Virus record (IMG/VR): IMGVR_UViG_3300029857_000010
Strand: one strand, 5' to 3'
DNA: 45,791 bases
DNA from: a virus
Position numbers and translations under genes: made by a program. This document shows positions 1,628 to 31,067 of the stretch, one piece after another. The notes under the pieces are model-generated. The model did not search any database. It was given only the letters and a program-made list of their open reading frames with translations, and was not told where the DNA came from. Within the stretch, counting starts at the first letter, position 1, and each line of letters begins with the position of its first letter.

Positions 1628-4600
1628 TCAATCTTTTTTACGTTCGCTTTTTGGTCTGCGCTTGTAAATATCTTGCAGTTCAAAATCCATATCACCAGCA
1701 GCAATATCTATGCTGTTGAATATGATATTGAAGATGCCGGCAGGAACGCCAAGAAATGCACCGCCGACATATGCAGACTGCTCTATCAGTTCGCCAGTTC
1801 CTTCTTCGCCTCTGGCAACCTTGCCCAAACGGCGATAGACTGTCATGCCTTTATCAATCAGTCCTTGTGCCGCAGTCAGCCTGTAACCGTAGTTTTTCAT
1901 GCCTAGCAAGCATTGTATGCCGATATTTGCAAATTGGCCGTAAGGTCCACCCATAGACAACGGGTAGTTGATAAGTTCTTTTGACAATTTACGATAGCCG
2001 TCCTTATCTTTCTCAAAAGGAGCAGTCAAAGAAAGCTCTGCCATAGCCACGTTCAGCAAGCACACGCCGAGGAATTTGGCACCAGCAAAAGCAATCAGCC
2101 GTTCAGCCATTTCTTTTTTCTCACCGCTATTCCATAACCTTTTAACAATATGTGCTTCTCTGTCCCATTGGTTAAATTGTGTATTGAAAAATCCCTGGAA
2201 CATCGTAAACAATCTGAATAAGCCGCTATTTCGTTGCATACTTGATACATCATGAATACGACTACTGCCTAACGTGCGGCGAATAACAGTGTTCGCAAAG
2301 TCTAGTGCTTCCTGCTCTGTTTTGCCTTCGTTGATTTTCTTCATGTATGCTTCTGCAAATACCGGCTTTGCAGTCATCATATCAGTGTAGCCTAAAAGCA
2401 TTGCACCATATTTCAGCGTCCTTTTTTCAATCGGGTTAAGGTCAGAACGGTTCTGAATATCCCTTAACGTAATGTCTGGCACTCGCGAACGCTCACGCAT
2501 AAATGCGCTTTTGGCACAAATAGCGTCTACTTCTGCTCTGCCTTCACCTGTAAAACTGCGAAGTAAGGCTCTGAAAGCATCAGCATGAGTAAAGCCTTTT
2601 GTACTATTGCCGTAAAGAAATATGTTAGTAGTGTTCTGCATTATCGTTTTAAAATTAAACATAATAGCCGCATTTGTTGCAACATTACGCAAAGCGTCAG
2701 CAATCTTCGTAAACGTCGTTTCAGCCATGTATGCTGTCCTGCTACCATATGGGTTAGCGCAAGCCTGCAAAAACTCTCTCAAAAGTCTTACGTTTGTATC
2801 GCCTAAACGCTCAACCATGTTGCGGTAAATATCCTCATCGTTCAGTATCTTTCTGAAATCAAGCATTGTTTCGCGATAACAAATATCATGAATGTATTTT
2901 TTTACCGCCGTAACCTCACTGCCACGCGATAAGTCTACGGGATATTTGCCGCCGGTACGTGCTTTACTTGCGCTAGTATCCGTAGTCAAAGTCCGTTGCG
3001 GCGGTCTGCTGCCTTCTTCGGTACTGTCGATTCTGTCAAATTTTCCGGGCATACTGCCGGTGCGTGTATCACGTTCCAACGGGAAGTAACCACCTTCAAA
3101 TACCACGCTTTCACCGCTTGCAAGCTTCAGCACCAGCGGTGACGCTTCAATCTTCGGCGGCTCAAAGCCTTTTGTTCTGCGGTTGACTTCTGCCAGCATA
3201 GGCCAGAATTTACTTGCTGCATTGATACGCGCCTGGGCATAAGCAATATCTGCTTTAGTCAGATGCTTGCACAAAAACTCTATAAGGTTTTGTTTGGTTT
3301 GCAGCATTGCTTCTTCTTTGCCTATAAGCTCCGATTCTTCCACCCATATATCAGAATTCTTTACGCCTACCGGTTTTTGCGAACACAGCCTTGCGGCGTT
3401 ACTATCACTGCCAAGGTTGCACAGCATAGCAATCAAAGCATGCTTATCTGCGCTACCGCCAAGCTCTTCGTAGTAAATCCTTGTATCATGCGCAATGCCT
3501 GCTTTCTTGTCCGGCTCCCATTTCTGTAAAGCATCTATAAGCTCGTTCTGGTAACTTTCAAGCATCGTGCTTTCCATATCTGCACAATGGTTGATTTTGT
3601 TGTAAAACTCCCTAGTAAAATAACCTTCTTCCGTCCAATTATCCATCATCAAGAAAAAGTTATCAGCGTTACGCAGTGTAGCTATGATATTTTTAGGCCA
3701 GTCAATAATTCGCTTACGCAGGCTCTTTTTACTGTCGCTGCCAATCTCCGCCTCGTACTCTACCGGCAATTCTTGCAGGTGCGCTATCGTATCAGCCTTA
3801 ACCTGTTCAAAAGCTTCACCGGCGGCAATCTTATTCATCTTCGTATCTTGCTTTGCAATAGCACGAATGTTTTTCAGTGCGTCGATAACGTCCATGTAGT
3901 TTGCAAGGCTAAGCTGCGGCGCATTGGTCAAATCGTTATTCGGGTTCAAAACAAACTCCGGCATAGAAATAATTTCGTCGCCGTACTTTGCCTGCATCTC
4001 TGCAATGTACTCGCTAAGCGACTGCACCTCTCTACCGTTGGTGTTAAAGTCCTTGCGATGGTAGCCCATACGCTCCAGCAAAGCGCACATCTGGAAGAAG
4101 TGCTGCTCTGTTCCCCATACTTCTTTCTTGCTGTGCATCTGCTTTTTGACGTACTTTCTTGCGCTTTCAATCTGGTGTTTGGCCTTGACTGCTTCACGAT
4201 ACAAAGCATGGTTAATCATCTGCTGCTGCTTATACATAGCCGCTTCTTCCAAAAGGCCGGCTTTAGCAGCCTTATTTGCATTAGCCGCCGCTCTGCGTTC
4301 CGCCATAGCAAATCTTCTCGGCTTCATAACCTCGCCTGCGGGCAAAGTCTGAATATAGCGTTTAGCAAAATTATCTGCGTTCTGCTTACGCACTTTAGCA
4401 ATATTCTCACGCTCTTTTTGCTTAATATCCTTGTCGCTTATTTCATTAAGTGCTTCATCAATAAGCTGTTGTTCAAGTGCAACCACTTCGCCGCTTTCGT
4501 CATTGTAGAGTGCTTCCCTTGCCGCTTCTCTTGCCTGCTCACGCTCCTGCATGAAGTCGGGGAATCTGCGGTTTACGGCCTTGTCAATCTCTTGACGTAC

Positions 4601-7600
4601 CATAGCTCTTTCGCTAGGTGAAGTCAAAATATCCTGTGCCATAGCATCGCCGCTGTCATAGCCTAAGCTGTCGGCCACCCAGTCAAACAGTTCTCTCTGC
4701 TCGTTAGACAAGGCACGCTTTTTGCTCATCTCCACAAGGTCGACTTTATCCGGATTAGTTTCAAGCTCATGCTTCAAGGCTTTAAGCTCGTTAAGCTCCG
4801 TAAGTTGTTCACCCTCTACCAACGTTTCGGCAATCTCTTTCAAGCCTTCTTCGCTTTTGAGCTTTGCTCTGTCACCGCCGTTGCGAATGTAGTTTCTCGC
4901 CCAGTTATCCTGCACGTCGCTACCCTCATTCTCATTGACGGTATAACCTTCGACAATCTCTCTTGCCATTTCATAGCCGCTGGCATAGCCGTTTTCCTCT
5001 GCTATCTGGTCAAAGAGTTCTTTTTGCTCCTGCGATAATTGGTTGCGCTTACTTTCTTTTACCAAGTCGACACCTTCGGGGTCTGTTTCAAGTCTATGTT
5101 TCAAGGCTTGCAGTCTGTCCAGCTCATCTACAATATGCTTAAAGTCTGCCTTAATTTCAGCGTCGCCATAATCTAAACCGGTGCTACGCAAATCGTAGTA
5201 ATCCGCTATATCTTCGCCTCTTGCAATCTTTTCAGCAATTCTTCTGCGTCCTTTTTTACTGGTCAAGTCGCTTACGCTGCCGCCGTAGTCATGAACGTAT
5301 CTTGATACCCAGTTGACATTACGAATACTGTCACCTGCTTCATGGAATACAAGGCCTTCAATATCCGCTTGCTCTAAAGCTCGCTTAGTCCAATGACGTT
5401 TTCCGTCCTTGCCTATCTCACCAAAATCAACCAAGACTGCGCTTTGGTCCGGTATGCCTGCAAAGTCATTTGCATACTTGCCTTCTGTTCTGTTTGTTGC
5501 GGCGAAGTAGCCCCACTTGCCATTGATAAAAAACGCACGCTCACTCTTGACTGTATCTTGATATTCCGCAAGCTCACTTTCTATTCTGTTAGCAATCGGA
5601 TTTAAAATATCGTCAATAGCTCCGTTTGTATCTTTTAATAATTCGTTATAGTTTATACGTTCATTGCTATAAATATATTTTCTTGCAAGCCTACGCGGAT
5701 TAGCTTCTATTGTTTCCCATTCGTTGATTTTCTGCTTGAAGTTAGCATGAGCCATGCCGTGCTCATCAACAACAAATGTAGGATTGGTTACAGTTTTTTG
5801 TCGTGACTTGCTAAACATAGCAATCAGCATATCTTCGGCATTTGCAACACGCTCTTTAGAAAGTGTGCCGTATGTGTCGACTTCTGCTTGAAGATACTCA
5901 ACTATCGGATTGAGTATATCGTCAATGCTGGCGTTAGTATCGTTCAGCATATCATTATAGTTTGGCAGTACGCTTCCTAAAACGTGCCTGTACTTTCTTG
6001 CTATAATTGCAGGATTGGCAAGCTTTGTTTTGCGCCATGGAGTATCCGAATTATTAGCATGAGCCATGCCGTGCTCATCGTCTATAAAGTGCGAATCAAC
6101 AACCTTAACTTCCTTACCAAACTCATAACCTACCTGGTGTCTTGCACGATTGACAAGCTCCAATGATACTGCTTCTTCAATCTGCGGCCGTATTTCTTCG
6201 ATGAAAGCAGCCTTTTCAGCTCTGCGCTTTGCGCTGAAATCAGCCATTGCTCGTCTTGTCAGAATATCCACGGCCTTGTCTTTAGCCTTCAAGATTTTAT
6301 CCTGCAAGGCTTTTTTATTTTGGTCTGATAACTTGGATGTTATATTCTCTGGCAAGCCGCCGAACATGCCCTCCATGCGTGCCATAACTTCAATTTCTTC
6401 ACGGCACGCCAACATTCTGTCAAATACTTGCCGTACTTCCGGCGTTAATTCTGCCGCATTTTCGCTTCTTGCTATCTTGCTATAAATAGCTGATAACCAA
6501 TTAGCGAATCTCTGGAACACTCCGCGCAAGCCAACACTAGGCGCTTTGCCTTCCATGATGTAGGTTTCAAATGCTTCTGCCAGCTTTTCATGCCCGGCTC
6601 TCTTTGCTTCAACGTCACCGCTTGCCCATGTTTCAGCATCAATGCCTGCATACTCCATGAGTTTTTTTGCATCAGCATTTAGTCTTGTGTTGCTGGGGTC
6701 TGCCAATGCTTCGTTAATCATGGTTTCCACAAAGTAGTGTCCTGTTTCGTGGATAACTGTACTTGCATCTGCGCCCTTAAAAAGCGTGATAACATAAGTA
6801 CCATCATCCATTGGGGAAATCATGCCTTTATCTTTCAGTGTACCATTGACAATTTTTTGTTGCTTGTAATTATCTGCTTTTTGTGATACACTATTAGCAA
6901 AAGAGGACGTTTTGTTTGAGATACTGGGCTGAGCCTTGAATTGCTCGGAACCCGAGGGCTTGAACGCGTCCTCTATTTTTTTATACTCACTTTCGTTAAA
7001 AACATTATGATTATAATATGATAATGATTTATCATTATGTTCTCTTACTGTAACAACTACATAACGTTTTTCACCATTAACATTCAGTGCAGAATGAATA
7101 TAATAAAAATTCTCGTCTGAATGTTTTTCTTTTTGCGGCGCAGATTCTGTAACGAAATTACCATTCTCCATAATTTCACGTAAATAGCGCAATGCAAAAA
7201 GTTTTTCTTTTTTAGCGGAAGTGTGTTCCATTTTCTTTCTGCCACTTGTGCCAAATTTAATATTATTTTCTTGATACCCTTTATCTATTCTAATATCACC
7301 CAATACACCATTATGAACGCTCGTGCCTTGCAAGTTGTCCCTATACCATGCAAAAGCCTTTTTCTGCAAGCTCTTCAAATCTGAATAGTGTCCCATCTCA
7401 TTTCCGGTAATATTAGTAGTATAGAATTGCTCTTTTTTAAGCACTCCTCCCTTGCTAAACCAGCCATTCTTTTGTTTAGCTTTGCCGCCATCTTCAAAGC
7501 GCAGCTTATTCTTTTGCAGCCACGCAGCAGGATTTTCGGGGTCTGCAATAAGCGCGCGGCTCTCCAATACTAAACGCAAATTACCGGCATGAGATTTATT

Positions 7601-9064
7601 CATACCGGCTTTAGTAGCGCTGCCTACAATAGCGTCAAGTTCTGCATCAAGCTCCGTACTTGCTTGCCTGGTTAAGTTGTAGCCTTCTCGCAGTTCTTTG
7701 CGCGTCTTTGCACCACCGTCCGACAATTCGCCGTTACTGTCAAAATACATATTGTCTTTCGTAGCTTCAAACAATGCATTGTCCTTAGCCATTGCCGCCG
7801 TAAACTTGCCGCGGCTAATATCAATATCCTGCCCCAGCTCCGCCGCAGTTGCCACTTCTTCCGCTGTCACACCTAACTCGTCAAAAAGTTTATTGTTATT
7901 GCTAGTCTGCTTGTAGCCTTCCAAGTCCTGTGCAGATACTGTTACTGTATCGTCCTCAAAGTTAGGATTATTCGCTTCAATTTCAGCCGCCGCACGTTCC
8001 GGGTTAATGCCTGTTTCTTTGATTCGTTCAGCATCCGCTACTAACTTCGCCTTACGTTCTTCGTTAGCTTTTAATGCGACGTGCTCAACAACGCTGTCAA
8101 CTGCAACGCTTACGCCGCTAACACTACCGCCAAGAATAGCACCAATAAGGCCGCTATATCCTGCTTCCTTCAAGTTCTGCTGCCAGTTCTCGCCCCACTT
8201 CTCTGCAAGTTTGGCAGTGCTTGCGCCGGGGTTCTTTGCCCATAAGTCCGTAGCTTGCTCCGGGAATTCCTGCAATGCTTCGGTAACACCTTCTTCAAGG
8301 CCACGTTTGGTAACTTCCCATATCTTAGTTTTCAGTCCGCTACCGGCAGGCATCTTTTTAAGCAGTCTGCCAAGCGGCAGTTCTTCTAATACTGCCTGCG
8401 GGATTGCATTCATCAAGCCAGCCTCCGCTGCTCTGGTTGCGCTTACGCCCTCTTTGCGCAGTCGCAGGTATTGTTCGCCGCTGATGTTTGCACCATTGTA
8501 AAGCATACTGATAGCGTGTACAGTTTTTGCACCTGCACCGGCAGCACCTACACCTTTAGTCAGTGCAAGCTGTACTAAAAGCTGAATGCCGTTTTCAGCC
8601 AAATCATAACCAAGTTGCCCAGCCGCCGTATCAGCCTTAACTTCTTCGCGCTTCAAAATCTCATCGGTGACATAGCCTAAAGCCTTGCTGATGTTCTCTG
8701 ATTGGTCATACTCTTTAACAACATTCTTGTCACCCTTATGAGCTTCAATATTAGCGTCAACGGTCGCTTTAGCCGCACCGAATAAGCCACGCACCGAACC
8801 TTTAAGGCCGTTCATTACGGCAGTGCCTATGCCTGGTTTATCATCGTTGATAATGCTGCTAGTATCAATCGTCGGTGAGCTATTGCTCTGTACTGCCTGC
8901 GAAAACTTATTGTACTCATCGTCGCTCATTTTTTGCAGGTCATAATAGCCTAGAGTTTCAGCAGGTGACAAGCCGCTGTCAATATCAGCAATAAAGCCAT
9001 AATTAGCATATTCCTTTTTTGCTTTTAATCTGCGGTCGAATTCGTCTAAAGGTTCATTAGCCAT
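1628..9064 (-). CDS. giant 2478-aa virion/ejection protein (polyvalent-type) with an HExxH zincin-like metallopeptidase motif and internal tandem duplications; in the position of T7 gp16
   Basis: Single uninterrupted 7.4-kb ORF. HETGH motif at nt 6737-6751. Two pairs of internal repeats, about 5537-5773 vs 5849-6103 and 4616-4798 vs 4940-5122. Start codon abuts the stop of the upstream SLT gene. Confidence 0.75.
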   Translation of the reverse strand: MANEPLDEFDRRLKAKKEYANYGFIADIDSGLSPAETLGYYDLQKMSDDEYNKFSQAVQSNSSPTIDTSSIINDDKPGIGTAVMNGLKGSVRGLFGAAKATVDANIEAHKGDKNVVKEYDQSENISKALGYVTDEILKREEVKADTAAGQLGYDLAENGIQLLVQLALTKGVGAAGAGAKTVHAISMLYNGANISGEQYLRLRKEGVSATRAAEAGLMNAIPQAVLEELPLGRLLKKMPAGSGLKTKIWEVTKRGLEEGVTEALQEFPEQATDLWAKNPGASTAKLAEKWGENWQQNLKEAGYSGLIGAILGGSVSGVSVAVDSVVEHVALKANEERKAKLVADAERIKETGINPERAAAEIEANNPNFEDDTVTVSAQDLEGYKQTSNNNKLFDELGVTAEEVATAAELGQDIDISRGKFTAAMAKDNALFEATKDNMYFDSNGELSDGGAKTRKELREGYNLTRQASTELDAELDAIVGSATKAGMNKSHAGNLRLVLESRALIADPENPAAWLQKNKLRFEDGGKAKQKNGWFSKGGVLKKEQFYTTNITGNEMGHYSDLKSLQKKAFAWYRDNLQGTSVHNGVLGDIRIDKGYQENNIKFGTSGRKKMEHTSAKKEKLFALRYLREIMENGNFVTESAPQKEKHSDENFYYIHSALNVNGEKRYVVVTVREHNDKSLSYYNHNVFNESEYKKIEDAFKPSGSEQFKAQPSISNKTSSFANSVSQKADNYKQQKIVNGTLKDKGMISPMDDGTYVITLFKGADASTVIHETGHYFVETMINEALADPSNTRLNADAKKLMEYAGIDAETWASGDVEAKRAGHEKLAEAFETYIMEGKAPSVGLRGVFQRFANWLSAIYSKIARSENAAELTPEVRQVFDRMLACREEIEVMARMEGMFGGLPENITSKLSDQNKKALQDKILKAKDKAVDILTRRAMADFSAKRRAEKAAFIEEIRPQIEEAVSLELVNRARHQVGYEFGKEVKVVDSHFIDDEHGMAHANNSDTPWRKTKLANPAIIARKYRHVLGSVLPNYNDMLNDTNASIDDILNPIVEYLQAEVDTYGTLSKERVANAEDMLIAMFSKSRQKTVTNPTFVVDEHGMAHANFKQKINEWETIEANPRRLARKYIYSNERINYNELLKDTNGAIDDILNPIANRIESELAEYQDTVKSERAFFINGKWGYFAATNRTEGKYANDFAGIPDQSAVLVDFGEIGKDGKRHWTKRALEQADIEGLVFHEAGDSIRNVNWVSRYVHDYGGSVSDLTSKKGRRRIAEKIARGEDIADYYDLRSTGLDYGDAEIKADFKHIVDELDRLQALKHRLETDPEGVDLVKESKRNQLSQEQKELFDQIAEENGYASGYEMAREIVEGYTVNENEGSDVQDNWARNYIRNGGDRAKLKSEEGLKEIAETLVEGEQLTELNELKALKHELETNPDKVDLVEMSKKRALSNEQRELFDWVADSLGYDSGDAMAQDILTSPSERAMVRQEIDKAVNRRFPDFMQEREQAREAAREALYNDESGEVVALEQQLIDEALNEISDKDIKQKERENIAKVRKQNADNFAKRYIQTLPAGEVMKPRRFAMAERRAAANANKAAKAGLLEEAAMYKQQQMINHALYREAVKAKHQIESARKYVKKQMHSKKEVWGTEQHFFQMCALLERMGYHRKDFNTNGREVQSLSEYIAEMQAKYGDEIISMPEFVLNPNNDLTNAPQLSLANYMDVIDALKNIRAIAKQDTKMNKIAAGEAFEQVKADTIAHLQELPVEYEAEIGSDSKKSLRKRIIDWPKNIIATLRNADNFFLMMDNWTEEGYFTREFYNKINHCADMESTMLESYQNELIDALQKWEPDKKAGIAHDTRIYYEELGGSADKHALIAMLCNLGSDSNAARLCSQKPVGVKNSDIWVEESELIGKEEAMLQTKQNLIEFLCKHLTKADIAYAQARINAASKFWPMLAEVNRRTKGFEPPKIEASPLVLKLASGESVVFEGGYFPLERDTRTGSMPGKFDRIDSTEEGSRPPQRTLTTDTSASKARTGGKYPVDLSRGSEVTAVKKYIHDICYRETMLDFRKILNDEDIYRNMVERLGDTNVRLLREFLQACANPYGSRTAYMAETTFTKIADALRNVATNAAIMFNFKTIMQNTTNIFLYGNSTKGFTHADAFRALLRSFTGEGRAEVDAICAKSAFMRERSRVPDITLRDIQNRSDLNPIEKRTLKYGAMLLGYTDMMTAKPVFAEAYMKKINEGKTEQEALDFANTVIRRTLGSSRIHDVSSMQRNSGLFRLFTMFQGFFNTQFNQWDREAHIVKRLWNSGEKKEMAERLIAFAGAKFLGVCLLNVAMAELSLTAPFEKDKDGYRKLSKELINYPLSMGGPYGQFANIGIQCLLGMKNYGYRLTAAQGLIDKGMTVYRRLGKVARGEEGTGELIEQSAYVGGAFLGVPAGIFNIIFNSIDIAAGDMDFELQDIYKRRPKSERKKD

Positions 9065-17895: not shown

Positions 17896-18284
17896 TAGTT
17901 ATTCCCCTTGTTGTTATCCACATATTCCACTGCCAGCTCTTGCAGCTTTAGTTGGAATTCTGCATACTCCATTTCAGCCTGCTGCTTTAGCTCTATGCCT
18001 TGCAGTCCAAGTGCTAAAATGCTTTTAATAATGCCTAAGCCTACGTCGCGGCGGCCTTCGTTATAGAAAGTCTTGCTGTTGCCGGTAAAGCACATAGAGT
18101 TTACTTTGGTCACATCAAGCATACGCATCAAGAACCAGCGTCCGCTTTCACTCCCCAGCAGGTCAAGTAGGGCCTCTTTGTCCCTTCTTGCCTGCTCTCT
18201 TACCATGTACTCTGTCAGCAGTGCTTGCCTTCTATCCTCGCCGGTATTGGATTTATATTTAAACTGCTCGCTCATTATTCCCAA
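17895..18284 (-). CDS. hypothetical protein, 129 aa
   Basis: ORF between the portal and scaffold genes, overlapping the portal stop. Confidence 0.4.
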   Translation of the reverse strand: MGIMSEQFKYKSNTGEDRRQALLTEYMVREQARRDKEALLDLLGSESGRWFLMRMLDVTKVNSMCFTGNSKTFYNEGRRDVGLGIIKSILALGLQGIELKQQAEMEYAEFQLKLQELAVEYVDNNKGNN

Positions 18285-20047
18285 CCTCCCGGCACGCCTA
18301 GCCAGCTTGTAATAGCTGGGTTGGAATCATTCGCCGCCGCAGTAAGATTTTTGGCCGCCTCTGCCGCAGGAGCCGCAGCCTGCGCCATTGCCAAGCCTTC
18401 CTGCATTTCCTGCTGCCGTTGCATTTCCTGCTGCTCTTGTTTGAGCATTTCTTGTACTTCTTCATCACTACGCAATGCCACTGCAGGCACGCCAAGCATT
18501 TCAAAGTATTTTGTAATAGCACCCAACGGGTTAATCTTCTTTGTAACTTCTGGCCATACTTGCGCCATTTGTCCGGTCTGTGCTATCGCCTGTTCGATAT
18601 TCACAAGTCCGCTCATCTTCTGCGCCTGCGCCAGCGGTGAAATATAGTCCACTTCCACATCTTCCTCGCTCAAAAGGTCTTGCAGTTCTTCCGGTACCGG
18701 AGGGAAACCGCCACTTCTGTCGATGATGTTATATACACGTTGAAGAATCAGTGTTAAGAATTCATCCTGCAATCGCTCAACCACGGGGCCTAGCTGTTGC
18801 AGTTTTTCCTGCGTTCTCTCCATAACCTCCCTAGCAGTCATGCGGCTATTATCAAGGTTATCTAACATCAAGAACAAATCAGCACTGTATGCTCTCTTTA
18901 TAGCATCCTCAACGCGAATAATTTCTTCCTGCGCGTCCTTCAAGTCAAGGTCAACCGCGAACAAAGGCTTAACCATATCTTGCGTCTGGTCATCTACGGC
19001 TGTTAGACCGCCAGGCATCAAGTTAATACCGCCGTTATTCATAAGGCTTGGGCTGCCTTGCATCGGCGGCTTTATCTTTAACTCTATTGCTGTGAGATAA
19101 TCTTTTTTCAGCAGTTGCAGCATTTTACTGTCGCCTTCTGCAAACCACGCAGGACCTCTTGCGTATGCTTCATTGCCGCTGACAAGATAACGCGCTACCG
19201 GTACTGCTTCTTCTTCAAAGCCGCCAACATACAAGTATTCGTCGCTCTCTGATTTTTCCAACCAGTACACGCTTCTATACGGCATGTTCAGTCTGTCCAT
19301 GTAGCCAGGCAGTTTATCGCTGTTAGGCTCTACCATCCAGCAGACTTTATACTTCTTAGTAAGATTGGTCTGATTGTCTAACAGTCCTTTCAGATTGTCG
19401 GGCAAAGCGTCTACGCCGAAGCAGTCTGCTAGCTGCTGCAAAGTCATATCGTACTTTCTTGCAAAAGTAGTTACCTTGCCGAAGCCGTCTGCTTCAAGTG
19501 CATAAGTACCGATTGTCATTGTCTGGAACCGCACGCCGTTTTCTGCGTCGTAGAATATAGCCATCGGGCACTGCCCAAAAGGCAACTCCAGATATACAGT
19601 ATGGATGCTATTATAGAAGTTGCTCTTTGCAAGCACACTTGATACAATCTCTTGTCTTGTGTCAAGCACCTTCATAGCCTCAACATTCGTGTTCAGCTCC
19701 GGTCTTCTATATGCAAATCTGAACCACTGACGGCTCGGCGGTGTAAGTCCGCTCATAACGCCAGCGGCAAATACCTGCGCCGCTCTCCACGCTACGCCAT
19801 GCACAATCTTCAAGTCACGTCTGCGCGCGGGATTGGTCTTGTCTGCCGTGTTGTCAAACTCTCCGACAAACGGAAGCTGATAATCTCTTATCTCTTTCCA
19901 TCTGTCCTCCCAATCTCGCCTGTCCTCGTACATGCTTTTGAGCTTACGCACCAAACGCTGGCGGTCCGGCAAGTTCTTTTTCAGCGGCACCCCGTCACTA
20001 GGAAGTGTTCCCTGTGGCTTGCTCGCCGCTATCGTTTGAAAGTTCAT
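18275..20047 (-). CDS. portal / head-to-tail connector protein (T7 gp8-like), 590 aa
   Basis: The segment RMTAREVMERTQEKLQQLGPVVERLQDEFLTLILQRVYNI resembles T7 gp8 RVTAEEIRYVASELEDTLGGVYSILSQELQLPLVRVLLKQL. The Q/A-rich C-terminal tail is also gp8-like. Lies immediately downstream of the terminase gene. Confidence 0.7.
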   Translation of the reverse strand: MNFQTIAASKPQGTLPSDGVPLKKNLPDRQRLVRKLKSMYEDRRDWEDRWKEIRDYQLPFVGEFDNTADKTNPARRRDLKIVHGVAWRAAQVFAAGVMSGLTPPSRQWFRFAYRRPELNTNVEAMKVLDTRQEIVSSVLAKSNFYNSIHTVYLELPFGQCPMAIFYDAENGVRFQTMTIGTYALEADGFGKVTTFARKYDMTLQQLADCFGVDALPDNLKGLLDNQTNLTKKYKVCWMVEPNSDKLPGYMDRLNMPYRSVYWLEKSESDEYLYVGGFEEEAVPVARYLVSGNEAYARGPAWFAEGDSKMLQLLKKDYLTAIELKIKPPMQGSPSLMNNGGINLMPGGLTAVDDQTQDMVKPLFAVDLDLKDAQEEIIRVEDAIKRAYSADLFLMLDNLDNSRMTAREVMERTQEKLQQLGPVVERLQDEFLTLILQRVYNIIDRSGGFPPVPEELQDLLSEEDVEVDYISPLAQAQKMSGLVNIEQAIAQTGQMAQVWPEVTKKINPLGAITKYFEMLGVPAVALRSDEEVQEMLKQEQQEMQRQQEMQEGLAMAQAAAPAAEAAKNLTAAANDSNPAITSWLGVPGGWE

Positions 20048-20262: not shown

Positions 20263-21618
20263 TTATACCGCCTCCATAATCGAATACTCCGTGTTGCACA
20301 TTAGCTTTTTAGGCTTTCTATCATCAAGCCCTAACTGTCTTAACGGAACGTTCCTTGCAAATGTTAATACTAGGCCGTCTGCAAGGTCTGGTGAACGTCC
20401 TAGCTTTTCTTTTATCTCTTCTTTAGGCGTTAACATTAAACGCCCATTCTTAGAATACTTATAGTGAATGACTGCAAGTTCTTCTCTTAATCCCGGTTCC
20501 TCCGGCAAAGCACCGCCAGCCTCTATCCACTCTTTTAGCTTGAAGTACATCTCCGCTCTGATATTCTCGTATCGCTTATTCTCAATCGCTGCGCCTTGAA
20601 ACGGTATCTCTCTTAGCGCCGTGTACCCCATCTGCCTCAATCTGTCGACTACGCCAGCACCCATGTTGCCAACGTCTATAAAGGTCATATCTGCCTTATT
20701 TTCATCCATTGCCAAAGCAATATAATCTGCCGTCTGCATCGTATTCAACTTCTTATATACTCTCGGCCGTGAATATACCATTAGCCCCTTACGCTGCCAT
20801 ATACATGTTCTGTCATCGCCGAAGCGTGCTATATCTGCACCCTGGATAAGCGGCATATCATAGGGAATGTCCTTTTCCGTCAACTCTCTATTGAAAGCCC
20901 TGTCTAATTCTTCCAGACTGAAAAGCTCGTTGATTGCCGATACGCTAAAGTCACACAAATACTCTTGTCTGAATTCTACCTCCGGCATATCCTCTTTCAG
21001 TTCTTCTATGCTCTTTGCGTCTATAATGCCGCTATCGTACACGTTCGACAAATACGCAAAGTAACGCTTATTCGTCTTGGCCTTCTTGTACATCTCATAG
21101 AAGTTGTTCTGCCCCTTAGGTGTACCGATGAAATAGCAATAACCTTTTCTGTCGCCATTCTCTATCGCAGGTCTGATAATCTGCGTCCACATCTCCGGCT
21201 TCATATCCGAATACTCGTCAAGGATTACGCCGTCCCAATATGTACCGCGCAATGCGTCGGGATTATTCGCACCAACGATATATATTCTCGCTCCCTGCGC
21301 TCCAGGTACTTTACTGGGGAATTCAACATACTTTTTAGTTTCATTCACCTTGATGCCCTCTATGACGCTTGTGTAATACTTCAATGGGCCCCACGCGATA
21401 ATTTCCATCTGTGCGCTGAACGGACCTACTAAAGCATACTGCGGACTGATTAAGTCGCTCTGCAAAGCATCCCTTATAAGGTGATTCACCATTCCGATGG
21501 TCTTACCAAAGCGGCGGTGTGCTACGATTACTGCAAAGCGGTGTCTGCTTAATTCCTTATGCAGTACCTTCGCCCATGCAGGTCGTGGAGTATATGGTAT
21601 TTGTATTATGTTTTCCAT
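20263..21618 (-). CDS. terL: terminase large subunit, 451 aa
   Basis: ATPase motifs (…AHRRFGKT…, …GVILDEYSDM…) and a C-terminal nuclease-like region (FIDVGNMGAGVVDRL). True start is ATG at complement(21616..21618) with SD AGGGGG. The 64-aa N-terminal extension in the ORF track reads through noncoding sequence. Confidence 0.75.
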   Translation of the reverse strand: MENIIQIPYTPRPAWAKVLHKELSRHRFAVIVAHRRFGKTIGMVNHLIRDALQSDLISPQYALVGPFSAQMEIIAWGPLKYYTSVIEGIKVNETKKYVEFPSKVPGAQGARIYIVGANNPDALRGTYWDGVILDEYSDMKPEMWTQIIRPAIENGDRKGYCYFIGTPKGQNNFYEMYKKAKTNKRYFAYLSNVYDSGIIDAKSIEELKEDMPEVEFRQEYLCDFSVSAINELFSLEELDRAFNRELTEKDIPYDMPLIQGADIARFGDDRTCIWQRKGLMVYSRPRVYKKLNTMQTADYIALAMDENKADMTFIDVGNMGAGVVDRLRQMGYTALREIPFQGAAIENKRYENIRAEMYFKLKEWIEAGGALPEEPGLREELAVIHYKYSKNGRLMLTPKEEIKEKLGRSPDLADGLVLTFARNVPLRQLGLDDRKPKKLMCNTEYSIMEAV

Positions 21619-21996
21619 GTTTACCCCCTTGAAAAAATCGTTTTGGTAATTTTTGGTATTTACCTCCCCCGGCGGCTGCGAAATTTTTGGGCCCCACCCC
21701 CACTCAATGTCAGCGGGAAAGGCAAGAACCAAAATCAATTTTTGCGAAAACCCAGGGAAATCACCAACACCAGCGCTGCCAAACAACCAATCAGAACCCA
21801 CGCCAAACAAAAATAAAAACGTGGTAGGCCTGCCGCATGAGCCACGCAGGAACGGCCGCCAACATCTGCCAGGCGAACGCCTGCCGCTAACATCATCAGC
21901 CAGGCCGTCAACATCTGGAACCGCCAGCTAATCAGCAGCAGCAGGATAATATTTTACGTCCGATAATAAGGATTATGTTAAAAGTTCTATCTATGT

Positions 21997-22699: not shown

Positions 22700-22960
22700 T
22701 TAACCCTCTGCATCATCTGCGGGGCTGCCGTCATCTGCTGGCGGCGCGGGGAACGTCAGAACGGCGCGCCCGGCATCATCTACAAACGCCAGGCGAACGC
22801 CGCAGGCCTGCGCTATCCTGGTTAAATCCTGCGCGGTAAAGCTGCCGCGGTTATATTTGTTGCTCAATGCCTGCGGCGTGCTAAGGCCTAGCGCCTGCGC
22901 CAAATCCGCGCGGCTCAATCCTGCGAGCTGCACGGCCGCCTTGATAATTGGTGTAATCAT
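22700..22960 (-). CDS. XRE-family HTH DNA-binding protein, 86 aa, a candidate regulator of the divergent promoter region
   Basis: HTH signature GLSRADLAQALGLSTPQALSNKYNRG. Strong SD AAAGGAGG upstream. Confidence 0.65.
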   Translation of the reverse strand: MITPIIKAAVQLAGLSRADLAQALGLSTPQALSNKYNRGSFTAQDLTRIAQACGVRLAFVDDAGRAVLTFPAPPADDGSPADDAEG

Positions 22961-22989: not shown

Positions 22990-23018
22990 ATTATATAACC
23001 ATAGCCGCAAAAAATCAA
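22990..23018 (-). promoter_or_regulatory. sigma-A-type promoter for the HTH gene (TTGATT-17-TATAAT on the minus strand)
   Basis: -10 at complement(22990..22995), -35 at complement(23013..23018), 17-nt spacer. Confidence 0.5.
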
Positions 23019-23051
23019 ATCAAAAAAGTTAAAAAATAATCAAAAAAGGTA

Positions 23052-23080
23052 TTGACAAGCTAATCAAAGGCGTTTATAAT
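23052..23080 (+). promoter_or_regulatory. perfect-consensus sigma-A promoter (TTGACA-17-TATAAT) driving the plus-strand accessory operon
   Basis: TTGACA at 23052-23057, TATAAT at 23075-23080, exact 17-nt spacer. Repeated (T)AATCAAA elements at about 23013, 23037, 23061 and 23103. Confidence 0.7.
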
Positions 23081-23142: not shown

Positions 23143-23364
23143 ATGGCTACACAAAAAGAACAAACACAAGACGCTAAAATGATTCAGTTGGCGCTTTACC
23201 GTGAATACGGCTTCCAGCCGTGCTTGAAGGACATCGAAATTCTGGAAAGCGTCGAAAACCCGGACTTCCCCTGGCATCTTGAAAGGGCCTACGTTGAAAT
23301 CAAAGGCCACTTTTACACCATCTATCAAAACGAATTTGGCGGGTTGACCGTACAAAAATATTAA
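23143..23364 (+). CDS. hypothetical protein, 73 aa
   Basis: First ORF of the operon, SD TAGGAGGA. Confidence 0.55.
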   Translation: MATQKEQTQDAKMIQLALYREYGFQPCLKDIEILESVENPDFPWHLERAYVEIKGHFYTIYQNEFGGLTVQKY

Positions 23365-23452
23365 AGCTGACGGCGGCCCCGTTGGGGGCCGTAAAGCTGC
23401 CAGGCAGAAGGTCCGAAGCCCTAGCCAACAGCCGAAAGGAGAGAATAAGAAA

Positions 23453-24397
23453 ATGACTTTTGAAAAGTATAATGCGAACCCCGAAAATAAGAATATCGGT
23501 GATTGCTCAATTAGAGCTATCTGCACGGCAACCCCGTTAACCTACCAGCAGGCTAAAAAGCTGCTGGAAACAAAGGTATTTGAAAGCGGCGCTGCATGGA
23601 ACACCGTGAAGAACATCACCGCCGCCCTGGCTGACCTGGGAATTGAAGTTAAAGCCGCCAGCCGCGAAACAGTCAACAGCTTTACAAAGCATTGCGATAC
23701 CGGCGCCAGCTACGTTGTTTTTGTAGCAAAGCACGCCGTAGCCGTTGTTAATGGCGTTATCTATGATACATGGGACAGCAGCCGCCGTTTTGTAAAGCTG
23801 GTTGCCAAAGTCAGCCGTGAAAAATTTGACGAATTGAAAGCCAAATACAACCCGGAACCTAAAAAGGAGGAAAAGAAAATGGACTGGAAAAAGATTTTTG
23901 CCGCTTGCGAAACAATCGAGGAACTGAAAAAGGCGTTTAAAAAAGCCTGCATGACTTGCCACCCCGACAAGGGAGGCACGGCCGCCGAATTTAAGGCAAT
24001 GAGCGCAGCGCACGACAAGCGCGCCGCCGAACTTGCCGAAAGTGAAAGCCGCCAGGAGTGGCAGCGCAACAAGAAAGCGGACGGCACTTATAAAACAGCC
24101 GCCGAAATCCTGGCCGAACAGGCGGAATTTGCCGAAATCCTGGCCGTGCTGATGGGCTTGAAGGGCCTTGAAATTGAAATCTGCGGCAGCTGGTTATGGA
24201 TAGGCGGCGAAACGAAAGAGAACAAAGACGCCTTGAAAGGCGCCGGCTGCCGTTGGGCCAGCAAGAAAAAATTATGGTATTGGCATGCTGGCGAATGGGT
24301 GAAGAAGGTCCGCCGCGCGTTGACCATGGACGAAATCCGCGACCTGCACGGCAGCGAGTTGTTGAAATACCGCCCGGAAACGCCCTTGTTACAATAG
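23453..24397 (+). CDS. J-domain (DnaJ-like, HPD motif) protein with an N-terminal putative Cys/His peptidase-like domain, 314 aa
   Basis: J-domain signature IEELKKAFKKACMTCHPDKGGTAAEFKAMSAAHDKRA, with the HPD codons at 23960-23968. N-terminus has …NIGDCSIRAI… and …KHAVAVVNGVIYDTWD…. An in-frame internal SD AAAGGAGG plus ATG lies at 23862-23881. Confidence 0.65.
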   Translation: MTFEKYNANPENKNIGDCSIRAICTATPLTYQQAKKLLETKVFESGAAWNTVKNITAALADLGIEVKAASRETVNSFTKHCDTGASYVVFVAKHAVAVVNGVIYDTWDSSRRFVKLVAKVSREKFDELKAKYNPEPKKEEKKMDWKKIFAACETIEELKKAFKKACMTCHPDKGGTAAEFKAMSAAHDKRAAELAESESRQEWQRNKKADGTYKTAAEILAEQAEFAEILAVLMGLKGLEIEICGSWLWIGGETKENKDALKGAGCRWASKKKLWYWHAGEWVKKVRRALTMDEIRDLHGSELLKYRPETPLLQ

Positions 24398-24478
24398 CCG
24401 AAACGCCGCCCCGTGCGGCGTATACCGGGGACCGGCCGCCCCGGTACTGATGAGGCAGGCCAAAGGAAGGAGATAAGA

Positions 24479-24709
24479 ATGAAAATAGCTATTATAAGCA
24501 AATTGACACCCGAGCATCCGGCGTGGAAGCACGGGAAGCGCTTAGACGTAAAAATCTTTACGCAGCTTTACCCCGGCGGCCCGCAATATTATTGCGGAAA
24601 CGGCAAATATTGTGAAGATATGGAAGCGGTAAAAGCTTTTATCGCAGAAGAAGCGCCGGACAAAATCAGCGACGAAAGGACAATAGGAGGCTTGAAAAAT
24701 GAAGCGTGA
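24479..24709 (+). CDS. hypothetical protein, 76 aa
   Basis: ORF with SD AAGGAAGGAG. The track's longer start at 24413 has no SD. Confidence 0.5.
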   Translation: MKIAIISKLTPEHPAWKHGKRLDVKIFTQLYPGGPQYYCGNGKYCEDMEAVKAFIAEEAPDKISDERTIGGLKNEA

Positions 24710-29690: not shown

Positions 29691-30274
29691 TTCAGCAGCT
29701 TACTTTTACAAGGCTCATTATGCTTGCGGCTGTACGTAAAGTCGTTCATGTAGCATTGCAGGATACGGAATTGATTGTCAATAGCGTTATCATTCAAGCC
29801 AATCTGCCGGCCGTACTCAAACACTGCTTTATCCTGCGGCATATACGGCATAATGAGCCGGTGTTCCGTCAACTTTGCCGCCGTCCATTTCAGCAGCATA
29901 CTGTTCAGCCTATCAGCAAGCGGCTTGCCGTCGCTCAGCTTCTCCATGTTGCAGCGGTTTATATTCTCCTGCACATGAGCTTCTTCTGCCTGCTTCAAAG
30001 CAGCCTGCATCAGCGCCGGGCTGATTATATTCACGTTAAGGCCGTTCGCACCGGTCAAGGTAAGCGCTATCTGCTCTGCCTTCTCCCACCGGTCAAGGCC
30101 TATATTTTGCTGATTAAAAATTCCTGCCCAAAGGTTTACCGTTTCGGACAAGATTCTTTTCGCTTCTTCCAGGCGGTCAAAGCCGGGCCGTATATCCTGC
30201 GGCATCCGCTTGCCTGCCTGTTGCAGTTTAACAATCGTTTGGGCTATTCTCTGCTGTTGCAGCATCGCCCTCAC
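29654..30274 (-). CDS. hypothetical protein downstream of the replisome organizer, a possible replication accessory or loader-like protein, 206 aa
   Basis: ORF placed immediately after the replisome organizer. No Walker motif seen. Confidence 0.4.
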   Translation of the reverse strand: MRAMLQQQRIAQTIVKLQQAGKRMPQDIRPGFDRLEEAKRILSETVNLWAGIFNQQNIGLDRWEKAEQIALTLTGANGLNVNIISPALMQAALKQAEEAHVQENINRCNMEKLSDGKPLADRLNSMLLKWTAAKLTEHRLIMPYMPQDKAVFEYGRQIGLNDNAIDNQFRILQCYMNDFTYSRKHNEPCKSKLLKCGDTLTLEVLA

Positions 30275-31067
30275 CTCCTACATCTCCGTAAAGTTCGTTT
30301 ACCAGGTCCATGCCAGAATATCCGGCACCTGCATTCTGCTTCTTGCTGTTGCCGCTGGCATAGTTTCTTGCTACGGTCTGCACATACGCAAAGTTTCTTG
30401 CGCCGTGCTCAACCGCCGCTAATATTCCCTGTTCAACGGCAGCCTCACCAACCTCACCTAACAAGGCCTGCAGTTTTTCTCCGACGATTGGAGTAAGCGG
30501 CATCATGTTTTTCTCCCATAAGGCAAAAATTTCAGTATGCGTTTTTTCATCGTCATTTCTTTTAGGATGATGATAATCATCCTTTTCTTTATCTCTATAC
30601 TCTATACTCTTATCTCTAATCTCTGTCGGACATTTTGTCCCTTTTTCTGGGGACATTTTGTCCCCAGTTTTCGGGACATTTTGTCCCTTTTTATTTTGAC
30701 GTTGCGTCTTTTTCTTCGTCGCTGATTCTGACGCACTACCGCTGCCGGTCATATTAGCAACCTCCGGCAAGTAGTTTTCGCCTTTATCGTTCTTCTCAAT
30801 AAGGCCAATTTGTTCAAACAAAGCAAGCGCACTTTCGACAACTTCAATATCAAATTGCGTCTGTTTAGCGATTGATTCAGCCGTATGCTGAATGGTCATT
30901 TTGCCGACCTGCCGAACAAGCGCGCCGTCAGTTTTCAGCGACTTTAAGCACAGTTTAAGGTATAAGAGTACGTATTTTTCGCCGTTTTCCTGGTCCTCTA
31001 ACCACTCAACAACATCACTTTCAAAGAAGTTTTCGTTGAGTTTTAACCAATAATACCTGCCAGCCAT
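30228..31067 (-). CDS. phage replisome organizer with a DnaD-like C-terminal domain, 279 aa
   Basis: N-terminus MAGRYYWLKLNENFF…LLYLKL is the replisome-organizer signature. C-terminus IFALWEKNMMPLTP…FAYVQTVARNY is the DnaD-domain signature. Iterons are embedded in the linker. Confidence 0.7.
   Translation of the reverse strand: MAGRYYWLKLNENFFESDVVEWLEDQENGEKYVLLYLKLCLKSLKTDGALVRQVGKMTIQHTAESIAKQTQFDIEVVESALALFEQIGLIEKNDKGENYLPEVANMTGSGSASESATKKKTQRQNKKGQNVPKTGDKMSPEKGTKCPTEIRDKSIEYRDKEKDDYHHPKRNDDEKTHTEIFALWEKNMMPLTPIVGEKLQALLGEVGEAAVEQGILAAVEHGARNFAYVQTVARNYASGNSKKQNAGAGYSGMDLVNELYGDVGGEGDAATAENSPNDC
30628..30687. repeat. three iterons GGGACATTTTGTCCC (half-sites GGGACA/TGTCCC) at 22-23 bp spacing inside the replisome-organizer gene, followed by AT-rich tract 30688-30725; a candidate origin of replication
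   Basis: Copies at 30628-30641, 30649-30665 and 30673-30687. Adjacent T-rich stretch ctttttattttgacgttgcgtctttttcttc. Confidence 0.6.

Follow-up and report, generated by a model that had tools for sequence, protein, structure and literature searches.

Results

Why would a phage join a predicted cysteine hydrolase to a putative chaperone-recruiting domain in a single protein? The question is raised by one open reading frame (ORF), 23453–24397, in a 45,791-nucleotide stretch of viral DNA (IMG/VR virus record IMGVR_UViG_3300029857_000010), the whole of which is called the window here. A preliminary description of the ORF proposed a J-domain protein fused to a papain-like Cys/His domain, with a possible internal start. 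Direct reading of the DNA found all of its coordinates, those of the ORF, the HPD motif, and the Shine-Dalgarno (SD) sequence with its ATG, to be correct and confirmed the Cys and the His/Asp. The comparisons described below strongly support the conclusion that a hydrolase-like N-terminal domain (N) was fused onto a widespread small phage protein composed of a J-domain and a C-terminal domain (J+C), and that the N fusion is a rare derivative of this protein.

Domain organization and conservation

ORF 23453–24397 encodes, in order, the N peptidase-like domain, a linker, the J-domain, a helical spacer, and the C domain (Table 1). PHROG family phrog_15863, a fused N+J+C family of 312 positions and unknown function, matched residues 1–314 over its positions 1–312 with E = 1.9e-155. 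An exact copy of the 314-residue protein is present on six public contigs. Full-length orthologs (P0001–P0006) with 98, 78, 77, 76, 57, and 56% identity occupy the same syntenic position and were recovered independently in ENA, JGI, Logan, and NCBI assemblies, and two GTDB genomes carry the gene. Codon comparison with three orthologs revealed many synonymous changes in every module. The end-to-end PHROG match, the six identical contigs, the independent orthologs, and the synonymous codon changes show that the ORF is a genuine conserved phage gene and not an assembly artifact.

Megablast of the gene against phage records gave no match, and a tblastn search of 50,697 phage records with the full protein found just five J+C relatives, from Enterococcus, Fusobacterium, and uncultured phage, none of them T4-like. 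The size of the 90%-identity cluster that holds the 314-residue protein (2,102 members) was rejected as a measure of abundance. This cluster also takes in an unrelated protein, the 339-residue integrase encoded elsewhere in the phage, and this oddity of the clustering leaves its size without meaning.

Architectures at the locus and origin of the fusion

In the related phage L002 the portal, the terminase, and a 73-residue ORF are arranged as in the window and are followed by a standalone 184-residue J+C gene. The 86-nucleotide leader directly before this gene is 96.5% identical to the leader before the N-domain start in the window, so that the N module is bracketed by a shared leader on one side and J+C on the other. 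The 295-residue protein P0141, encoded by L003 at the same position, has no J-domain; a low-complexity linker connects its N and C modules. The architectures found at the locus are therefore J+C, N+J+C, and N+C, and C is the only constant module. This constancy suggests a role for C in target selection, with N and J as effector modules that can replace each other or be combined. The earlier suggestion that the ORF marks a fusion of two ancestral genes is borne out by the standalone J+C gene behind the shared leader and by the homologs, most of which are J+C only. A standalone N gene beside a J+C gene (the Rosetta-stone test) was not seen in the two contigs examined.

The gene lies in a plus-strand island, 23143 to ~26440, that extends from the terminase block to the SSB/RusA block and exhibits cassette swaps and deletions among close relatives. 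The island breakpoints fall inside ORFs and give rise to many chimeric or truncated proteins in public databases. In whole-contig comparisons, homology with L004 ends at 23534 and homology with L005 and L007 ends at 23784, and it resumes kilobases downstream. Near-identical database proteins were compared to the window by tblastn, which identified P0050, P0053, and P0059 as internal-deletion chimeras. P0050 joins ~23775 to 24254, P0059 joins ~23617 to 24218, P0053 joins 23704 to 24527, and chimeric variants recur in several samples. The P0050 junction sites are near-identical 10-mers in the window, TGGGACAGCA and TGGGCCAGCA, which suggests that this junction arose via microhomology. These alignments identify the island as a recombination hot spot, possibly driven by the phage RecT and YqaJ, which accounts for the origin of the fusion.

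The hot spot also supports an incidental fusion. In that case the N hydrolase and J+C are functionally unrelated and were joined in frame by illegitimate or RecT-mediated recombination, N has its own target, and J+C continues to work as before from the internal start. A fusion in so mosaic a locus could be no more than an accident that the phage tolerates, which weighs against a joint function. The breakpoints within the ORF in the near-identical phages L004, L005, and L007, the three chimeras, and the presence of RecT and YqaJ genes are consistent with an accident. So are the standalone N genes found elsewhere without a nearby J gene in the two contigs examined, and the occurrence of N in none of 109 J+C matches (see below). 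However, the fusion persists down to 56% identity with its frame and its putative catalytic and HPD residues intact. N is also joined to the same C-domain in the J-less P0141, which argues for a functional link between N and C. We consider an incidental fusion unlikely, and it is the most serious of the alternatives.

The N-domain is predicted to have a papain-like fold

Residues 3–120 matched phrog_3754, a family of unknown function that consists of the N-domain alone, with E = 5.4e-22. An exhaustive HMMER scan (E ≤ 0.001) collected 426 clusters of this family at 50% identity, mostly standalone proteins of 120–150 residues. An alignment of 15 N-domain sequences with 29–39% identity to the query (A1) has invariant residues at Y6, N7, A8, N9, P10, D17, C18, R21, A22, H94, D105, and D108, and W107 is kept in at least 90% of the sequences. 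The Cys, His, and Asp residues occur in the papain-like catalytic order, and all are invariant in A1. Codon changes relative to the orthologs also indicate constraint on the N-domain.

AlphaFold2 modeling on A1 gave a predicted local distance difference test score (pLDDT) of 91 and a predicted template modeling score (pTM) of 0.85. Cys18 begins a helix in this model, His94 opens a β-strand, and Asp105 closes the next strand. The helix N-terminal Cys packs against the His-bearing β-sheet, which is the papain-like arrangement. The nearest structures are Josephin and C39 peptidases. Fold matches (scores in parentheses) were obtained with the ComA C39 domain (7.6), PCAT1 C39 (7.5), PeiR (7.5), staphopain C (7.4), Josephin-2 (7.4), and AvrPphB (7.1). 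The N-domain is thus confidently predicted to have a papain-like cysteine-peptidase fold, and the model, together with the invariant C18, H94, D105, and D108, upholds what had been a guess at a papain-like Cys/His domain.

Pfam searches with the N-domain and 14 relatives matched no family, and searches of PDB with the family profile and of NCBIfam were likewise empty. By these searches the N-domain has no sequence-level membership in the described peptidase families (C39, C86 Josephin, C1, C47, C58, and others). Its sequence identity to the C39 (ComA, PCAT1) and Josephin-type (BpJOS, Josephin-2) members of MEROPS clan CA is only 10–16%, and it differs from them in having its own invariant YNANP motif ahead of the Cys. 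Its setting is the phage cytoplasm, whereas C39 is transporter linked and Josephin is eukaryotic. These data define phrog_3754 as a new phage-specific papain-fold family that is unrecognized by sequence methods. We infer that the N-domain has hydrolase activity; its chemistry could be that of a peptidase, deconjugase, deamidase, or transferase.

The phrog_3754 domain also heads proteins of 345–437 residues in AT-rich phages (P0094, P0111, P0129, P0199). These proteins form a recurrent class, and their long C-terminal parts match no Pfam family and have aromatic/acidic ends (...YGYDY, ...YDYHDYY, ...EYGFDY). Pfam recognized no partner domains in ten longer N-domain-containing proteins.

The range of possible chemistries allows a reading in which the N-domain does not act on host proteins as a protease and could instead be a deconjugase or "clippase" directed against bacterial ubiquitin-like conjugation defense, or a deamidase- or transglutaminase-type modifier, and the protein would be an anti-defense effector in which DnaK is secondary. 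In favor of this reading, the gene lies within a variable early accessory island, and the related phage L002 has an Acb2/Tad1-like anti-defense gene in its early region. The L002 gene (8189–8392, minus strand, in the early leftward block) encodes a small protein with a Pfam match to the Acb2/Tad1 hairpin of the anti-CBASS/Thoeris sponge family. However, the Pfam and PDB profile searches found no sequence-level link between the N-domain and the deconjugase or modifier families, and the analysis points to no defense-system target for it. We regard an anti-defense effector as improbable. A chaperone-guided protease is, if anything, a little less probable still. Here the J-domain would dock the protein onto host DnaK, the N-domain would cleave DnaK, a DnaK-bound client, or a C-bound target unfolded by DnaK, and the protease-free J+C isoform from the internal start would tune the system. 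If this were true, the phage would in effect assemble a two-component degradation machine in which Hsp70 serves as the unfoldase.

The J-domain

The J-domain was analyzed in an alignment of 33 J+C proteins with 32–97% identity. The HPD motif is invariant in all 33 members, and the Pfam J-domain family PF00226 was matched by 32 of them at E ≤ 0.01 (best, 4.5e-8). NCBIfam gave the query only far-subthreshold DnaJ matches. A search of PDB with the 33-member profile detected DNAJA1 (1.8e-9), SV40 large T antigen (1gh6; 6.8e-9), and E. coli DnaJ (1.7e-6). The AlphaFold2 model of J+C (pLDDT 85.6, pTM 0.76) has helix I at residues 3–9, helix II at 13–27, and helix III at 35–57, with the HPD loop between the latter two. 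The Lys-rich helix II (ELKKAFKKA) and the Phe of helix III (AEFKAM) fit the canonical DnaK-contacting pattern. Homology establishes the presence of a J-domain, in line with the preliminary description, and the domain would be expected to bind DnaK.

Several results weigh against this assignment. The query scored 24.0 bits against PF00226 as the full protein and 25.7 bits as J+C only, compared to a gathering cutoff of 27.8, and the match spans profile positions 13–51 of 63. The J+C model has no separate helix IV, which is either atypical or absent. Fold searches with this model returned mostly generic helical bundles, and Foldseek gave no match at E ≤ 0.001. The low Pfam score, the missing helix IV, and the weak structural matches would fit a degenerate relic that does not engage DnaK, leaving only the N and C domains to act, and the P0141 architecture manages without a J-domain. 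The invariance of HPD in 33 diverse members, the retained helix II and helix III residues, and the profile match to solved J-domains argue against a relic. The J segment is also the most constrained module, with the fewest non-synonymous changes relative to L008 (7 of 63 codons). Degeneration of the J-domain is very unlikely. Weakest of all is the idea that the ORF itself is chimeric, misassembled, or overcalled, as many truncated or chimeric near-identical database proteins and the truncated 172-residue call P0008 might imply, and it is effectively refuted by the identical protein on six contigs, the independent assemblies, the two GTDB genomes, and a PHROG built on the fused architecture.

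Pfam matches to cytochrome c were set aside; the protein is not a cytochrome, and a CXXCH string that overlaps the HPD motif causes them. This string (C166-M-T-C169-H170, 23948–23962) shares the HPD His. It is found only in the fused clade (CMSCH, CMQCH, CLACH), and standalone J+C proteins have CLQLH or ALKLH. The overlap is probably coincidental, and the Cys adjoining the HPD His could be redox or metal sensitive.

The C domain and the J+C family

The C domain has the signature EICGxWLWIxGxT, K..LK..G..W..KK.WYW, a basic stretch, and a MDEIR..HGS tail, with invariant G, W, G, T, K, I, and G residues. The C-domain profile detected nothing among PDB sequences, and fold searches with the J+C model found no convincing match for the C domain. 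DUF5710 (PF18974) matched C-domain sequences below threshold in 7 of 20 cases (E ≤ 1; best, 3e-4) and in 3 of 33 at E ≤ 0.01. Both are short β-α-β units with the pattern K..LK..G.rW....K.WY. The C domain differs in having an extra conserved EICGxWLW hairpin and the MDEIR..HGS tail, which are absent from DUF5710. A match to DUF6992 (whole protein, E = 7e-4) was dropped, with E = 0.078 for the C domain alone and a match in only 1 of 20 relatives.

DUF5710 occurs fused to Rep_3 plasmid initiators (PMC11233732). The resemblance of the C domain to DUF5710, together with the reliance of the phage on host replication proteins, weakly suggests that the target may be a replication-associated factor. 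Counting against this suggestion, the DUF5710 score of the query C domain is 12.7 bits compared to a gathering cutoff of 26.5. The replication link is weak because the match is subthreshold and DUF5710 itself has no known function.

A C-domain profile search of metagenomes identified at least 1,238 J+C-family clusters at 90% identity. The best 120 matches are almost all proteins of 160–185 residues. Among these 120, 109 are new; HPD is present in 104 of the 109, the C motif in 108, and the N motif in none. The number of clusters and the size and motifs of the best matches indicate that J+C is a common, widespread, and unstudied phage family. Existing database labels of J+C proteins are at most "DnaJ domain," "CbpA," or "molecular chaperone." The initial view that phage J-proteins are rare holds for reference genomes, in which 137 phage genomes yielded 49 unique sequences (PMC13254874), but not for metagenomes. 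What is rare is the peptidase fusion.

A possible internal start for J+C

Standalone J+C homologs start within one or two residues of Met143. All six fused orthologs examined, the window included, retain the SD-ATG in their DNA. The AAGGAGG sequence with an 8-nucleotide spacer is found in the window, L008, L012, and L016, AAGGAGG with 11 nucleotides in L017, and AGAGGAG with 8 nucleotides in L010. The L010 linker has 18 of 22 codons changed non-synonymously, and the SD-ATG is still present. AAGGAGG occurs 14 times in the window compared to 4.7 ± 2.1 in shuffled sequences, and none of 100 shuffles reached 14. A start codon lies within 6–10 nucleotides downstream of 13 of the 14 copies, and the copy at 23864 alone falls within a long ORF. 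The Met143 ATG and its AAGGAGG are the ancestral start of the J+C gene.

The conservation of the SD-ATG in orthologs and the overrepresentation of AAGGAGG ahead of starts make a second, 172-residue J+C product plausible, and on balance we lean toward its existence. A point to the contrary is that AAGGAGG also encodes Lys-Glu-Glu of the charged linker, and its conservation may partly reflect coding constraint. The internal start is unproven for this reason. The SD and ATG are where the preliminary description placed them, and its additional isoform is plausible only. P0008 (172 residues, 139 members, 97% identical) was rejected as a separate J+C gene. Its contig begins 13 nucleotides before the ATG, which identifies P0008 as a truncation artifact.

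T7 gene 4A/4B, phiX174 A/A*, and E. coli ClpB-93/79 are nested in-frame genes with internal starts and shared C-terminal domains. The arrangement described here would resemble them, in that a strong SD and ATG inside one reading frame would yield a full-length protein and a second that lacks the N-terminal part. Unlike in those systems, the internal start is also explicable as the ancestral start of the unfused gene.

Phage context

Genes further downstream encode SSB, RusA, a replisome organizer (Phage_rep_org_N+DnaB_2; 30228–31067), RecT, YqaJ, and the tyrosine integrase. The phage is podovirus-like and of human-gut Firmicutes, and its gene content indicates that it is temperate and dependent on the host replisome. 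Its portal is <40% identical to the portal of any deposited phage. This divergence and the empty megablast search of the gene indicate that the phage has no close relative in culture. On an 84.6-kb Phascolarctobacterium succinatutens CAG:287 contig (L017) there is a copy of the gene with 95% identity, and another copy, 98% identical, is on a contig that binning assigned to a gut "Bacilli bacterium." The two copies provide a host lead among human-gut Firmicutes. The tyrosine integrase and the 95% identical copy on a contig longer than the phage suggest that a gut Negativicute carries the element as a prophage.

A perfect TTGACA-17-TATAAT precedes the 73-residue ORF and then ORF 23453–24397. This site probably acts as an early rightward promoter for the operon to which the gene belongs, and the gene is probably expressed early. 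The back-to-back promoter-like sites at 22990–23080 look like a lysis/lysogeny-type switch region. A GC-rich hairpin at ~23372–23392 (GGCGGCCCC-GTT-GGGGGCCGT) with no T-tract lies between the 73-residue ORF and the gene. Its possible roles include RNA processing, RNA stability, and attenuation. Elsewhere in the window, a single 2,478-residue ORF (1628–9064, minus strand) is unusually large for a ~46-kb phage and is followed by ORFs of 699 and 934 residues.

Table 1. Features of the fusion gene and its surroundings in the window
Feature	Position	Strand	Description
Whole ORF	23453–24397	+	ATG start, 314 residues plus stop; DNA read directly
N-domain (aa 1–120)	23453–23812	+	Papain-like, clan CA-like putative cysteine-hydrolase fold; family phrog_3754
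Cys18 codon (TGC, within GDCSIRAI)	23504–23506	+	Putative nucleophile; first residue of helix 18–26
His94 codon (within KHAVAVVNGVIYDTWD)	23732–23734	+	Putative general base; first residue of strand 94–99
Asp105-Thr-Trp-Asp108 (DTWD, within KHAVAVVNGVIYDTWD)	23765–23776	+	Candidates for third triad residue; Asp105 codon 23765–23767, Asp108 codon 23774–23776
Lys/Glu-rich linker (aa 121–142)	23813–23878	+	Amino acid sequence diverges between orthologs
Internal AAGGAGG, 8-nucleotide spacer, in-frame ATG (Met143)	23864–23881	+	AAGGAGG 23864–23870; ATG 23879–23881
J-domain (aa 143–200)	23879–24052	+	Helix I, helix II, HPD loop, long helix III
HPD codons CAC CCC GAC (H170 P171 D172)	23960–23968	+	
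Helical spacer (aa 216–234)	24098–24154	+	Helix 74–92 of J+C model; packs against J-domain and C domain
C domain (aa 235–314)	24155–24394	+	β-α-β unit plus tail
Conserved leader	23361–23446	+	GC hairpin and SD GAAAGGAGAG serving the 23453 ATG
Promoter-like TTGACA-17-TATAAT, 12/12	23052–23080	+	Match to σ70 consensus only; putative function
Promoter-like site, 10/12	23018–22990	−	Before the CI-like helix-turn-helix gene 22700–22960
HTH_3/CI-like (CI/Cro-type helix-turn-helix) gene	22700–22960	−	Diverges from the operon holding ORF 23453–24397
Large terminase	20263–21810	−	Upstream of the gene
Portal	18275–20047	−	Upstream of the gene
Tyrosine integrase, 339 aa	37934–38953	+	

Discussion

The protein is probably a modular early host-takeover factor in which a class-C J+C core carries a recombined-in putative hydrolase. 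The J+C unit would be a class-C (type III) J-domain protein (JDP) whose HPD-containing J-domain docks host DnaK (Hsp70) and triggers ATP hydrolysis. The C domain would supply target or client specificity, and it is probably the specificity module. In this lineage a phage-specific, putative Cys-His-Asp hydrolase of papain fold was inserted in frame by recombination, between the leader shared with L002 and the start of J+C. DnaK would then remodel the target defined by C, and the N-domain would cleave or otherwise modify that same target. Because the ribosome-binding site and ATG of the ancestral gene are still present in the ORF, the gene probably gives two products, the 314-residue fusion and a 172-residue J+C protein equal to the standalone form that is widespread in phages. 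The sequences show the ORF, its domain folds and homologies, the invariant residues, the history of the fusion, the conserved internal SD-ATG, and the place of the gene in an early operon; the steps that we infer are DnaK binding, hydrolase activity, initiation at Met143, and which target is bound.

The only characterized phage J-domain protein is Rki (gene 057w) of the T4-related phage RB43, an early, DnaK-specific class-C JDP (PMC3486835). Rki and J+C are both small phage-encoded class-C JDPs with an HPD motif and without Gly/Phe-rich (G/F) or zinc-finger regions. Rki is expressed early, and its J-domain is specific for host DnaK and does not serve as a general co-chaperone. In contrast to the window protein, Rki lacks both a peptidase domain and a DUF5710-like C-domain. 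The two have no sequence relation outside the J-domain in the tblastn search of 50,697 phage records, which returned no RB43-type phage. Rki works via σ32 stabilization, a route not obviously available in a Firmicutes/Negativicutes host.

The large and small T antigens of polyomaviruses are viral multidomain proteins in which an N-terminal J-domain recruits Hsp70 to targets set by other domains. The T-antigen J-domain is required for viral DNA replication (PMC13254874). These proteins differ from the window protein in belonging to a eukaryotic virus and in their partner domains, which are helicase, Rb-binding, and PP2A-binding domains with no hydrolase. The J-domain is internal in the window protein, whereas it is N-terminal in the T antigens. 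A 2026 review of JDPs found that 48 of 49 phage class-C JDPs have no other recognizable domain (PMC13254874). Phage JDPs are thus already known, and the sequences analyzed here are in PHROGs as "unknown function." The J-domain/papain-fold fusion, the unrecognized N family, and the C-domain without structural precedent are new; they are variants and not a new category.

The unnamed J+C family is very common in uncultured phages. J+C, N+J+C, and N+C form a natural domain-swap series at one locus, which points to a shared target of the chaperone-recruiting and cysteine-hydrolase modules. The system is experimentally tractable for asking how phages use host Hsp70 in gut Firmicutes.

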